Below the pieces are notes generated by a model. The model searched no databases. It was not told where the DNA came from and saw only the letters and a list, made by a program, of their open reading frames with translations. A program made the position numbers and the translations under genes. Positions 1 to 5,020 of a DNA stretch of 64,000 nucleotides are shown here, piece after piece (position 1 is the stretch's first letter; the number at the start of each line of letters is the position of its first letter). The DNA is from Rhizomicrobium sp. (lineage in GTDB: Bacteria; Pseudomonadota; Alphaproteobacteria; Micropepsales; Micropepsaceae): positions 28,368 to 92,367 of the forward strand of contig JBEKMG010000009.1 of the NCBI GenBank assembly GCA_050008635.1, read 5' to 3'.

Positions 1-2
1 CG

Positions 3-575
3 ATCCTGATCGCGGTTTCCGCCTTCGGCTTCGCGGTGTGGCCGGCGGTCGTTTTCGGCCCCAAGTACCTGCAGGACACGCTGCATTTCACGCCGCCGCA
101 AACCAGCTTGCTGATTGTTCTGGGTGGGCTTCTCGCCGTGATCTTCAACATTCTGGCGGGACGGCTCAGCGATAAAATCGGGCGCAAGAGCGTTACCATC
201 GCCACCGCTCTGATCGCGATGCTGTGCTACGGGACGTTCTACAGCGGGATTCACTGGCAGTACCTGGCCTTGATGTGGGTGCCGGGGTTCTTCGGATTCT
301 TGTGCTCCGACGCATTGATTGCGAGCTTATCCGCCGAGCTGTTTCCGACTGCCTATCGCGCCACGGTTTCGGGCTTGCGCTATCTGGTGGGGATTCTGTC
401 CGGTGCCGTCAGCCTGGCTTTGGAAGGCCCACTCTACGATCTGTTCCACGCGCACGGCCCGGCGCTGATGCTTTTGCTGGCGGCGATGCCGGTGGCGGCG
501 ATCGCGATCCTGCGCCTGCCCGAACCCGCCGGGCGGACCCTGGAAGACATCGCGGCCCAACCGGATAGGAAATAA
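3..575 (+). CDS. MFS transporter, C-terminal part (start lies before the window)
   Basis: Open frame from the window edge. Multiple TM segments, MFS loop motif GRLSDKIGRK, and ELFPTAYRAT motif. Confidence 0.85.
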   Translation: MLIAVSAFGFAVWPAVVFGPKYLQDTLHFTPPQTSLLIVLGGLLAVIFNILAGRLSDKIGRKSVTIATALIAMLCYGTFYSGIHWQYLALMWVPGFFGFLCSDALIASLSAELFPTAYRATVSGLRYLVGILSGAVSLALEGPLYDLFHAHGPALMLLLAAMPVAAIAILRLPEPAGRTLEDIAAQPDRK

Positions 576-624
576 AACCCCCATACCGCACTATTGACAA
601 TTGTTTTCTGATGATATTTTATAG

Positions 625-973
625 CTTCGAACACTGGATAGTTCGTTAGGGACGAGAACGCTCATTTCGAGAATGCTCGTTTGAGGCGAAATAGCCGGTG
701 TCTGTAAAGGTAGGCGGATCGGGTTTGCCGGGTTTTTCAGACCCTATTCCGCGATTGTAACTTCTGGTCTCTTCGAGACCGCTAACTAATGAAAGCAACG
801 TAGTCAGGAACCATCGGTCGCAAGCCACTGGTAGCCCGGATCAGAAAATCTGGTGGCCGAAACACCCTGACTTCGTTGGCATGCAAAACACTCTCGGAGT
901 TCCGAGGGGTGTTGCAGGTCGACGAAGTCAATGGACCCGCAACACCTAAAAATTAGGCGAGGTTGCGTGTCCA
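625..973 (+). ncRNA. Candidate structured non-coding RNA or long 5' leader, family unknown
   Basis: Consecutive hairpins with G-U pairs: 628-645, 651-681, 714-752, 766-780, 796-878 or alternatively 868-930, and 932-973. Upstream TTGACA at 594-599. No credible ORF. Strand assumed from G-U pairing and the downstream genes. Confidence 0.5.
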
Positions 974-1297
974 ATGAAATACTTGGTCGTCCACTACGAA
1001 TTTGAAGGCTTACGGTGCGATTTAGATTCTTCGGTGCCGCCCCCCGCTGTGCCTACGAGTGCAGTGAACTCAGTAGTCCTGATTTTTCTCGTCAGTTCGC
1101 TCGCGGCACTTTTCGGGACTGGAATCTACGGCATCGTCTTCAAAGACTATGTGCCAATCCTATGCGTTTGGGCCGTTTGTGGTCCGGTGCTAACGCCAAT
1201 TGTCAAACGCTATGTCGGGCCGTTTGATGGGTGGAACTTTGATGCTGGATCAATCGGGAAAAGTGGAATTCAAGCGGGTCCAAATCGACCTTCCTAA
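974..1297 (+). CDS. Small membrane protein with two predicted TM helices
   Basis: ORF with two hydrophobic stretches (VVLIFLVSSLAALFGTGIYGIVF; YVPILCVWAVCGPVLTPIV). Start codon uncertain. Confidence 0.55.
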   Translation: MKYLVVHYEFEGLRCDLDSSVPPPAVPTSAVNSVVLIFLVSSLAALFGTGIYGIVFKDYVPILCVWAVCGPVLTPIVKRYVGPFDGWNFDAGSIGKSGIQAGPNRPS

Positions 1298-1478
1298 ACG
1301 TGCATACGAGCGCCTAGTGAAGCTAAAGGGCGCAACAGAATCCTCTTCATATGCGGATGTCCTCAGAAACGCATTATCGATTTATGCAGCCATCGTTTCG
1401 ATTATGGATGGTGGCGGCGCAATAATGGTGAAACAACCAGACGGAAGCGTCGTGCCGGCATATTTCATTTCGCGGTAA
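1242..1478 (+). CDS. Ribbon-helix-helix (CopG-like) DNA-binding protein
   Basis: [35 protein letters not shown] has the alternating beta-strand plus two-helix RHH pattern. ATG at 1242 chosen within ORF 1200..1478. Confidence 0.65.
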
Positions 1479-1552
1479 CCACCACGAAACTTGTGCGCCG
1501 AACCACGTGCCGCTTGCCCCCTCCCCCCGGCTTGCTTATAAGCCGGGTTTTG

Positions 1553-2524
1553 ATGAGCCCGGCCGACGCCGCCCTTCCGATCCTCAAAACCAGCCATCTG
1601 CTTGGCATCGAAGGCCTTTCGGTCGGCGAGATCACCGGCCTGCTCGATTTGGGTGACGAATACGTCACGCTCGGCCGCGCCAAAGAGAAGAAGTCGCCCC
1701 TGCTCAAGGGCCGCACGGTCATCAACCTGTTCTTCGAAGCCTCCACGCGCACCCAAAGCTCGTTCGAGCTGGCGGGCAAGCGGCTGGGCGCCGACGTGAT
1801 GAACATGTCGGTGCGTACCTCGTCGGTTTCCAAGGGCGAAACGCTGATCGACACGGCCACCACCCTCAATGCCATGCGCCCGGACATCCTCATCGTGCGC
1901 CATCAGGATTCGGGCGCGGCCGAGATGCTGGCGCGCAAGCTCGATTGCTGCGTGGTGAACGCCGGCGACGGCAGCCACGAACATCCGACGCAGGCCTTGC
2001 TCGACGCGCTTACCATCCGTCGGCGGCGGCGTTCTCTCGCAGGGCTGACGGTGGCGATTTGCGGCGACGTGGCGCACAGCCGCGTGGCGCGCTCCAACAT
2101 CCATCTGCTGTCGAAGATGGGTGCGCGGGTCCGCCTGATTGCGCCGCGCACCTTATTGCCCGCCGCGGCGGAGCGCTTCGGCGTCGAAATCTTCACCGAC
2201 ATGCGCGAAGGGCTGAATGGCGTGGACATCGTGATGATGCTGCGCCTGCAGATGGAGCGCATGACCGGTGCCTTCATCCCTTCCACCCGCGAATATTTCC
2301 GCTTCTGGGGGCTGGACCGCGAGAAGCTCGCCTTCGCCAAGCCGGGCGCGCTGGTGATGCATCCGGGGCCGATGAACCGCGGTGTGGAAATCGACTCCGC
2401 CGTCGCCGACGACATCGAAGTCAGCCTGATCCACGAACAGGTAGAGATGGGCGTCGCCATCCGCATGGCGGTGCTGGACGCGCTGTCGCGCGGGCTCTCG
2501 GCCGAGGGGCGCAACGCGCCATGA
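1553..2524 (+). CDS. pyrB: Aspartate carbamoyltransferase catalytic subunit
   Basis: Motifs [16 protein letters not shown] and HPGP; ATG at 1553. Confidence 0.97.
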
Positions 2525-3831
2525 GCAACCGGCGAACCGTTTTCTGCAATGCGCGGCTGATCGATCCGGCCAGCGGACTGGACGCCAAGGGCGGGCTGCT
2601 GGTGGAAAATGGCAAGATCGCCGACATCGGTCCGCGCCTGTTCGGCGACACCGAGCGCAACGATCCCGAGACCGTCGACTGCAAGGGACTGGTGCTGGCG
2701 CCCGGCCTGATCGACATGCGCGTGTTCACCGGCGAGCCGGGCAGCGAACATCGCGAGACGCTGGAATCCGCCAGCCGCGCGGCCGCGGCGGGCGGCGTCA
2801 CCACCATCGTCGTCATGCCGAACACCGATCCGGTGATCGACGAGCCGTCGCTGGTGGATTTCATCCGCCGCCGGGCGCAGGCGACGGCTTCAGTGCGCGT
2901 CGCGCCAATGGCCGCGCTGACCCGCCATCTGGCGGGCGAAGTAATGACCGAGATGGGTCTGCTCAAGGAAGCGGGCGCAGTGGCGTTCACCGACGGCGAC
3001 CGCACCATCGCCAACACGCGCGTGCTGCGCCGGGCGCTGGCCTACGCCTCGACCTTCGGCGTGCTGGTGGTGGGCCATGCGGAAGATCCCGATCTCACCG
3101 AAGGCGCTTCGCTGACCGAAGGCGAATATGCGATGCGGCTGGGCCTTCCCGCCGCCCCCGCCGCCGCCGAGACGATGATCGTGGAGCGCGACATCCGCCT
3201 CGTGGAGCTGACCGGCGCGCGCTATCATTTCGGGCAGATTTCCTGCCGCGCCTCGCTGGAGGCGATTGCGGCGGCGAAAGGGCGCGGCCTGCCGATCACT
3301 TGCGGCGTCGCGGCCCATCATCTGGCGCTGAACGAGTTGGACGTCGGCCCCTACTACACCTTCATGAAAGTGAAGCCGCCGCTGCGCTCGGAAGCCGACC
3401 GCGCCGCGATGGTGGAAGGCGTCGCCTCCGGCGCCATCGACGTGATCGTCTCCAGCCATGATCCGCAGGCCGCCGACACCAAGCGCCAGCCGTTCGCTCA
3501 AGCCGCTTTCGGCGCGGTGGGACTGGAAACGCTGCTGCCCGTGGCGCTCGGCCTTTATCACGACGGCCGCGCCAGCCTTGACCATGTGCTGAAGGCGCTG
3601 ACGCAGACGCCCGCGTCCATCCTCGGGCTCAATGCGGGGACGCTGGCCAAGGGGGCGCCGGCGGACCTGGTGCTGATCGATCCGGATGCGCCCTTCGTCG
3701 TCGATCCCGACAAGCTTCATTCCCGTGCGCGCAACACGCCGTTCGAAGGCCGCAAGTTCCAGGGCCGGACGATGAAGACCTTCGTCGGCGGCGAATGCGT
3801 GTTCGACCGTTCCGCCGGGACCAGAAAATGA
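2521..3831 (+). CDS. pyrC: Dihydroorotase (or PyrC'-type)
   Basis: PGLIDM, PNTDP, KVKPPLR and SSHDP amidohydrolase motifs. Overlaps the pyrB stop (ATGA). The canonical HxH metal site reads MRV, so it may be the inactive structural type. Confidence 0.9.
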
Positions 3832-4448
3832 TAGCAAACGCGCAGATCGCTTGGCTTGGCGCGCTGTTGTGCCTGGCGCTCGGCTATCTGCTGGGCTCGA
3901 TTCCATTCGGCCTGATCGTCACGCGGCTCGCCGGCCTGGGCGACGTGCGCAAGATCGGCTCGGGCAACATCGGCGCCACCAATGTGTTGCGCACGGGCAA
4001 GAAATGGGCGGCCGCCCTTACCTTGCTGCTCGATGGCGGAAAAGGCGCGACAGCCGTCCTGATTGCACATACCTACTATGGAATCGAAGGCGGAGCGGTC
4101 GCCGGAATCGCCGCTGTCCTTGGCCATATCTTTCCCGTCTGGCTTCGCTTCAAGGGCGGCAAGGGCGTGGCGACGTTCGTCGGCGTGATGCTCGCCGCCT
4201 ATTGGCCGACCGGAGTGCTGGTGATCGCGACCTGGCTTGTCGTCGCCTACTTCTCGAAAATCTCGTCGTTGTCGGCCCTGGTCGCCGCCGCGCTGGCGCC
4301 TGCTTATACCATCGCATTTGGCCGCCTGAGCGAAGCCCTGCTGGCGTTTTTCCTCACGGTCGTGATCTTCATCACCCACCACGATAACCTCCATCGGCTC
4401 TGGCGCGGGGAAGAACCGCGCATCGGCGGCAGGAAGAACGAAGCCTGA
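3828..4448 (+). CDS. plsY: Glycerol-3-phosphate acyltransferase
   Basis: Motifs GSGNIGATN, GHIFP and GGKGVAT. Confidence 0.96.
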   Translation: MIANAQIAWLGALLCLALGYLLGSIPFGLIVTRLAGLGDVRKIGSGNIGATNVLRTGKKWAAALTLLLDGGKGATAVLIAHTYYGIEGGAVAGIAAVLGHIFPVWLRFKGGKGVATFVGVMLAAYWPTGVLVIATWLVVAYFSKISSLSALVAAALAPAYTIAFGRLSEALLAFFLTVVIFITHHDNLHRLWRGEEPRIGGRKNEA

Positions 4449-4450
4449 CG

Positions 4451-5020
4451 ATGCCGCACAATCTTTCGGACGGCGAACGGCGCGCCTGGCTCAGACTGGC
4501 GCATTCGCCCAATGTCGGCCCGGTCACCTTTGCGCAGTTGCTGGCACGCTTCGGTTCGGCGTCCGCCGCGCTTGAGGAAGTCCCGCGCCTAGTGCGCCGC
4601 GGCGGCGGCGATGCAACCACACTGCCGAGCGACGCCGACGCGCGCCGCGAGATCGACGCTCTGGCGAAACTCGGCGGCCGTCTGATCGCCTCGGTCGAAC
4701 CGGAGTTTCCGCGCGGATTAGCGGCCCTTGAAGCGCCGCCGCCCGTCATCGCCGTGCTCGGCCATGAGGCGCTTCTGGCGCGCGACATGATCGCCATCGT
4801 CGGCGCGCGCAATGCTTCGGCGTTGGGGCGCAAGCTGGCGGGCCGATTGGCCGCCGATCTGGGCGCCGCCGGCCTTGTCGTGGTCTCCGGCATGGCACGC
4901 GGCATCGACACCGCCGCGCACGAAGGCGCGCTGACGAGCGGCACCTGCGCGGTCGTCGCCGGCGGGATCGACATCGTCTATCCGCCGGAGAACGCAGAAC
5001 TTCGTATGGCTATGAATTAG
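4451..5020 (+). pseudogene. dprA: DNA-processing protein DprA, 3'-truncated (189 aa)
   Basis: N-terminal SAM region plus IAIVGARNAS, VVSGMARGIDTAAH and GGIDIVYPPEN. It then stops in AT-rich DNA; the C-terminal half is not found before topA. Confidence 0.8.

Follow-up and report, generated by a model that had tools for sequence, protein, structure and literature searches.

To our knowledge, control of translation by the order in which an RNA folds has been established experimentally in few cases, namely the MS2 maturation gene and the mRNAs of type I toxins. Type I toxins are small, hydrophobic proteins, usually of fewer than 60 amino acids, and in the hok/sok system the toxin mRNA carries metastable hairpins that sequester the Shine-Dalgarno (SD) sequence. 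The MS2 maturation gene is under delayed-folding control, which involves a long-distance interaction inside a cloverleaf of an RNA genome (PMC4615214). Metastable SD-sequestering hairpins have also been described for a type I toxin mRNA of Helicobacter pylori, aapA3/IsoA3 (PMC6733600).

The leader analyzed here lies in a stretch of 64,000 nucleotides of Rhizomicrobium sp. DNA (referred to as the window). A first-pass annotation had described three segments, A, B and C, of which B could pair either upstream with A (12 bp around one mismatch) or downstream with C (13 bp with two G-U), and had read them as a conformational switch controlling the downstream genes. The coordinates, sequences and pairings of these segments proved to be exactly as claimed. 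Together with three further segments (C', D and E) and the two genes, a ribbon-helix-helix (RHH) gene and one for a protein with two transmembrane (TM) segments, the features are as follows.

594-622, + strand: promoter-like site, with TTGACA at 594-599, a 17-nt spacer and a T/A-rich -10
630-973, + strand: structured 5' leader of the 2-TM/RHH operon, ~345 nt
796-808, + strand: segment A, CAACGTAGTCAGG, the upstream partner of B
809-865, + strand: domain inside A:B; in the window fold a three-way junction of CGGTCGC/GTGGCCG and two small hairpins
866-880, + strand: segment B, CCTGACTTCGTTGGC, the strand common to A:B and B:C
881-917, + strand: inner part of the long hairpin, made up of GCAAAACAC as its 5' arm, an apical hairpin at 892-907 and the first part of the 3' arm
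908-920, + strand: segment C', GGTGTTGCAGGTC, which pairs with the inner 5' arm or with D
918-930, + strand: segment C, GTCGACGAAGTCA, the downstream partner of B
933-948, + strand: segment D, which pairs with C' or E and has an anti-SD-like 3' end
952-973, + strand: segment E, with the SD GAGG (959-962) and a hairpin foot abutting the ATG
974-1297, + strand: 2-TM ORF, 107 aa, with the acidic N-terminal motif EFEGLRCDLD and two predicted TM segments
1242-1478, + strand: RHH protein, 78 aa, whose start overlaps the end of the 2-TM ORF

These segments make up a relay of four overlapping helices, in which A:B competes with B:C and C':D competes with D:E. The helices are probably a previously undescribed element of translational control, and we give about even weight to the model that the relay on the + strand acts as a gate, which would be closed by default and would open transiently or when triggered. 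In the closed default, B:C would extend the long hairpin and D:E would bury the SD region, so that neither the membrane protein nor the RHH protein coupled to it would be translated. In the open fold, C':D would remove D from E and free the ribosome-binding site (RBS). The open fold is accessible to a nascent chain, in which transcription delivers first A and B and later C' and D, each pair ahead of the segments that compete with it; translation might be allowed in a short window after transcription, or when a factor shifts the competition for B. What we infer in this model is that the helices are coupled to translation, the order in which they form over time, and any trigger; all of the evidence is computational, from six or seven sequences.

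Such a gate would resemble the MS2 maturation gene in several respects. The RBS is closed in the equilibrium fold (computed in 6/6 homologues), the context is that of a phage or mobile element, and an upstream competitor that is made first could delay closure, so that nascent chains alone would be translated. Predictions for the transiently open fold are divided, C':D appearing in 3/6 homologues once D has been made. Unlike MS2, the leader belongs to an mRNA encoded by DNA, its four helices are local and arranged as a linear relay, it shares no sequence or family relationship with MS2, and any delay is putative. Similarly, as in type I toxin mRNAs, the product is a small membrane protein, its gene lies on a selfish or mobile module and would be off by default, and successive exclusive hairpins occur, one of which pairs an anti-SD with the SD; in silico, the SD was sequestered in the stable fold with a D:E probability of 0.7-0.99. 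In contrast with type I systems, no antisense RNA gene was found, an overlapping RHH gene follows, and the protein, at 86-107 aa, exceeds the usual toxin size and carries two TM segments and an acidic N-terminal domain. Membership in either the MS2-type or the type I toxin family is not supported, and the leader motif is an undescribed one of a known general kind.

The two genes occupy an islet (576-1500) of ~50% GC in a genome of ~65% GC, with the end of an MFS transporter gene on one side and pyrB on the other. No match to the islet DNA was found in 24 genomes of the same genus and 16 of the same class, nor was a second copy found in its own genome; the 2-TM gene was present in one of 228 other genomes of the genus and in none of 400 of the class. 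These counts indicate that the cassette is sporadic and probably mobile. The RHH protein matched phrog_8557 (1.4e-11), with weak matches to RHH_1 and VapB; its relatives showed 58-86% identity, and a profile search extended the wider family to 657 representatives. For the 2-TM protein, no family was found in Pfam, PHROG, PADLOC or NCBIfam, and the Atlas gave no usable lead. A search with the RHH protein returned five further distinct loci with the leader + 2-TM + RHH layout (L002, L004, L005, L006 and L009), and the 2-TM ORF was kept at the protein level in all homologous loci (86-107 aa). L006 is a Rhizomicrobium MAG; the leader is complete in L004 and L009 and truncated at its 5' end in L005. 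A distant, low-GC locus (L132) has a 2-TM gene with EFxG..DLD, an overlapping RHH gene and a long structured leader, and L168 and L170 also pair a 2-TM gene with an RHH gene. Several cassettes lie next to genes of phage type: a replication initiator in L002 (6707-7648 of a 273-kb contig; phrog_16167 at 1e-24), a gene matching phrog_13435 in L132 and an integrase in L170 (1-446). These neighbours are consistent with carriage on prophages or other mobile elements. The comparisons below use six full leaders, those of the window, L002, L004, L009 and L006 (close) and L132 (distant), five of which come from one clade.

In the window, A:B consists of 5+7 bp around a 1x1 mismatch (-19.4 kcal/mol, RNAduplex) and B:C of 13 contiguous bp including two G-U (-21.5 kcal/mol). 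Both were listed independently by a repeat finder, A:B as repeat I4 (796-808 with 866-878, 92%) and B:C as repeat I2 (868-889 with 909-930, 82%). Because 11 nucleotides of B are used by both helices, the two are mutually exclusive and cannot fully coexist, as had been proposed; the minimum free energy (MFE) fold of the window splits B, with its 5' half paired to A and its 3' half to C. The region 780-945 folds better than its shuffles (z = -3.7). When the upstream 110 nt were dinucleotide-shuffled, a partner for B as good as A appeared in 44 of 1000 shuffles for the window, and in 106-543 of 1000 for the homologues. By energy alone A:B is thus unexceptional (in the window, slightly better than chance); what supports it is its conservation.

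The second half of the relay reaches the start codon. C lies directly 3' of C', and its pairing requires B. The complementarity between C' and D spans 12-14 nt (listed by the repeat finder as I5, 908-920 with 934-946), whereas the long hairpin instead pairs C' with the inner 5' arm. C' was nearly invariant in the close homologues, and in that close set an equally good downstream partner occurred in 3-41 of 1000 shuffles. D ends in CACCU in the window and in CACCUC in relatives; its core, ACCCGCAACACC, is almost invariant, whereas its partner E varies. D:E (933-948 with 952-973; -20.7 kcal/mol in the window) pairs this anti-SD-like CACCU(C) with the SD GAGG(UG) and ends at the ATG (974), although in the window the GAGG lies mostly in a bulge of D:E rather than in the stem. 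A pairing similar to C':D was also observed in the more distant L134, but its D is clear of its SD hairpin. Control of the downstream genes, as suggested by the first-pass annotation, is therefore plausible but indirect: it would run via C':D and the RBS-closing D:E, which were not listed there.

The pairings exist, exclude each other and are conserved at the RNA level. All four duplexes were found in 6/6 homologues at -11 to -27 kcal/mol (RNAduplex), although pairs were picked in each sequence by energy minimisation, which biases toward finding pairing. The strongest pairing that B can make upstream falls at the position homologous to A in all six sequences, and 7-11 nucleotides of B are used by both helices. 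With six full sequences, five of them from one clade, a covariation test such as R-scape has no power, and we therefore give the individual changes. No substitution seen in the shared nucleotides of B breaks A:B or B:C. The window carries C at B position -3, and its partners in segments A and C are both G; its relatives carry U there, opposite A or a wobble G; position -7 is U-A in L004 and C-G in the others, position -6 is C-G in L006 and U-A or U-G in the others, and position -1 is C-G in L002 and U-A or U-G in the others. In L132 the 5' half of B reads GUGGUGU and both partners are altered to match (ACGCCAC in A and AUACUAC in C); its A and C are unlike each other and pair with B via different wobbles. 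Thus the outcome that would have told against the first-pass annotation, one helix alone being conserved, was not seen: A:B and B:C are both kept in 6/6 homologues, and both show compensatory and wobble changes.

RNAalifold, applied to alignments cut so that only one competitor was present, recovered A:B with 10 pairs (4 with double changes), B:C and the inner stem with 22 pairs (7 with double changes) and C':D with 12 pairs (two with double changes). It detected no pairs from D to the AUG, where covariation in the E arm defeats the MAFFT alignment, and the case for D:E comes from the duplexes computed for each sequence. In these, the basal stem of D:E covaries strongly, being GGAC/GUCC in the window, CCACCC/GGGUGG in L004, GGCCCG/CGGGCC in L132 and CGAAC/GUUCG in L002 and L009, with a variant CGAAC/GUUUG also seen. 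The apical stem covaries as well (CTCGG/CCGAG in the window, TCGAC/GTCGA in relatives). Invariant islands in the six-way alignment were CAACG in A, CGUU in B, UUGCGGG in C' and CC in D. Over the four helices, 30 G-U oppositions were counted vs 6 A-C, and in B:C 17 vs 0. This excess of G-U points to selection on the + strand RNA rather than on DNA repeats.

Folding calculations then bear on whether the relay moves. The closed fold comprises B:C, the inner stem and D:E, and the open fold comprises A:B and C':D with E released. Under constrained folding, the open fold lay 3-16 kcal/mol above the closed one in every homologue, and the direct-path barrier between them was 14-20 kcal/mol. In full-length constructs, the probability of D:E was 0.7-0.99 (0.94-0.95 in the window) and that of C':D was 0-0.13. 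For transcripts cut after B, A:B reached 0.83-0.96 in 3/6 homologues; with longer upstream context and B made, it was not predicted in L002, L009 and L006. Once C was made, B:C replaced A:B in 6/6. For transcripts cut after D, C':D reached 0.65-0.84 in 3/6 and was not predicted in the window, L009 and L132; once E was made, D:E formed in 6/6. The balance between A:B and B:C was within 3.5 kcal/mol in the window, whereas in the other homologues one helix or the other was favoured by 6-8 kcal/mol. A:B and D:E can also form together, and this hybrid is the predicted minimum in L002, so that coupling of one half of the relay to the other, although plausible, is not a strict one.

The main rival to the gate is one static fold, in which B:C and D:E would serve as a constitutive translation brake or as a stabilising or processing element, with A:B and C':D as by-products; A would resemble C, and the inner 5' arm D, perhaps by an old duplication. 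This explanation agrees with the closed fold being the predicted ground state in 5/6 homologues, with an equilibrium probability of C':D of about zero, with an A:B no better than shuffles and with a C':D conserved mostly by invariance (two double changes). However, it leaves unexplained why CAACG of A is invariant even in L132 when its flanks are not, why A tracks the changes in B, and why C' and D hardly vary and keep perfect complementarity when the partners they have in the ground state, the inner arm and E, have drifted. We consider a static fold possible but rather unlikely. If the static hairpin pair were all there is, this would be an ordinary structured leader.

With regard to the leader as a transcript, the promoter-like site at 594-622 fell below a strict consensus scan; the block 592-622 is ~90% identical in L004, and ATTGAC is also present in L002 and L006. 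Judged from these letters, transcription would start near position 630. The region 576-975 folds on the + strand at -146 kcal/mol (z = -4.5), 19 kcal/mol more stable than the minus strand (-126.7 kcal/mol, z = -2.6). A 319-nt contig from a peat metatranscriptome library spans 668-982 at ~93% identity and a depth of ~3; its strand is undefined, DNA carry-over is possible, and its ends at 668 and 982, like the parts it leaves uncovered, are no evidence of transcript ends. This contig hints that the leader of a close relative accumulates as RNA. It differs from the window at six positions within 796-972, all outside A, B, C', C, D and E, and one of these converts a G-U of the variable domain to G-C. 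A terminator-like site was not found on the + strand at 796-974, and neither the B:C nor the D:E hairpin is followed by a U-run, so the GC hairpin with U-run that a transcription attenuator has as its alternative fold is lacking; attenuation of transcription is thereby excluded, and control would act on translation. Two other candidates were rejected: a leader peptide, since the ATG at 881 of the window is missing from relatives, and CsrA-type GGA loops, which are not kept across relatives.

The RNA-library contig also touches on the possibility that an RNA acting in trans (antisense or otherwise small), or processing of the long hairpin by an RNase, decides between the folds and thereby controls a toxic membrane protein, in the manner of a type I toxin-antitoxin system. 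The contig covers just 668-982, on an undefined strand; the first gene is a small membrane protein on a mobile cassette, and successive, metastable hairpins that sequester the SD are known from type I toxin mRNAs (PMC6733600). Nevertheless, no promoter-like site was found on the minus strand near the leader in a scan of 500-1700, and the single terminator-like site on that strand (906-893) is weak and, read by eye, missing from relatives. In addition, a protein of 86-107 aa with two TM segments is larger than typical type I toxins, and its partner is an RHH protein rather than an RNA gene. An RNA trigger of this kind therefore appears improbable.

Proteins of the RHH type recognise arrays of short repeats in direct or inverted orientation, and the leader has a 13-bp motif in three copies, direct in A and C and inverted in B. 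Since A and C agree at 10/13 bases, the three segments might be DNA operator sites for an RHH repressor. We regard this as very unlikely: the strand asymmetry (G-U vs A-C of 17:0 in B:C and 30:6 overall) is that expected for RNA, A and C of L132 differ and yet both pair with B, the repeat spacing of 44-82 bp shows no helical phasing, and the sites lie 170-300 nt 3' of the promoter. The conservation of DNA without strand bias that marks an RHH operator array was not found here. A separate observation concerns TTGACAATTG at 594-603, in the -35 region, whose exact reverse complement, CAATTGTCAA, occurs at 1197-1206. This inverted repeat (I7) matches at 10/10 positions, with copies 593 nt apart, the second just 5' of the RHH start; its palindromic CAATTG core overlapping the promoter could be a candidate RHH operator, judging by sequence. 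Another inverted repeat of 18 nt (553-570 and 1158-1175, 89% complementary) links the last codons of the MFS gene with the middle of the 2-TM ORF and is possibly due to chance.

A metabolite riboswitch, in which A:B would be the P1 stem of an aptamer at 796-880 and B:C the expression platform, is extremely unlikely: the layout does resemble a P1 stem whose 3' strand joins a downstream helix, but the enclosed domain has no conserved nucleotides or core (its 35-70 nt differ in sequence and shape in L002, L004, L009, L006 and L132 alike) and no Rfam family was found (cmscan of 1-5000, E<=1). The sole cmscan match, mir-9456 (26 bits vs a gathering score of 80), was discarded as a generic long-hairpin match. 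As in translational riboswitch platforms, B is common to a 5' closing stem and a 3' helix, and a downstream SD sequestrator faces an anti-sequestrator, so that exclusive helices (A:B/B:C and C':D/D:E) link the position of a sensor stem to the RBS; unlike them, the leader is without a conserved ligand-binding core or an Rfam match. Of the conformational switch proposed by the first-pass annotation, the switch-like competition therefore stands, with both helices conserved, and the riboswitch option falls, given the variable domain, the lack of an Rfam match and an A:B/B:C balance that is not consistently near-degenerate; a protein or antisense trigger, also named there, would be compatible with the data.

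Returning to the translational gate, a further and more speculative reading is that the leader represents a new class of cis-regulatory RNA of phages or mobile elements, in which a four-helix strand-displacement relay would act as a timer or as a sensor of a trans-acting factor and would gate a membrane-active 2-TM protein (a holin-like, exclusion or abortive-infection effector) and its RHH partner. We put this forward only tentatively and think it unlikely. If the relay does work as the gate proposed above, it would be a protein-coding, DNA-encoded case of translation gated by RNA folding order, attached to an uncharacterised 2-TM + RHH cassette on prophages, integrase-flanked islets and, distantly, small plasmids, and the leader would offer a concrete handle on the function of that cassette.

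Several minor observations were made along the way. A terminator-like hairpin with a T-run lies within the leader at 709-737 (+ strand); L002 retains its block GATCGGGTTTGCCGGGTT in part, and the hairpin may be an upstream attenuator or a coincidence. The decamer GCCGGGTTTT is seen again at 1542-1551, in a hairpin ahead of pyrB. Scanning genome contigs for the motif GGTGTTGCRGGTYGRCG gave 120 loci, all chance matches without the genes, and a longer three-part pattern gave 28, among which the only real one was the already known Rhizomicrobium MAG. In viral contigs, nothing was found with the three-part pattern, and protein-guided scans were also empty; a metagenome scan returned only the twin of the window and one known locus, and a monooxygenase carrying a similar peptide came up as the one false positive of the search for related loci. 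Near-identical copies of a ~100-nt stretch that fits the three-part pattern occur in one genome, an Anaerolineae MAG (L159 348-431 and L163 2172-2254), and this stretch is probably an unrelated repeat element. A serine resolvase is a neighbour of the cassette in L134 (1709-2248), and on contig P0003 a phage lysozyme gene lies 500 nt 3' of the RHH gene. Distant RHH proteins (35% identity) are also present on enterobacterial ColE1-type plasmids of 3-5 kb (L166 1-563; L167 419-978), where the gene ahead of them encodes a 93-aa protein whose one TM segment is C-terminal. A small membrane protein followed by this type of RHH protein seems to be a widespread, unnamed module.
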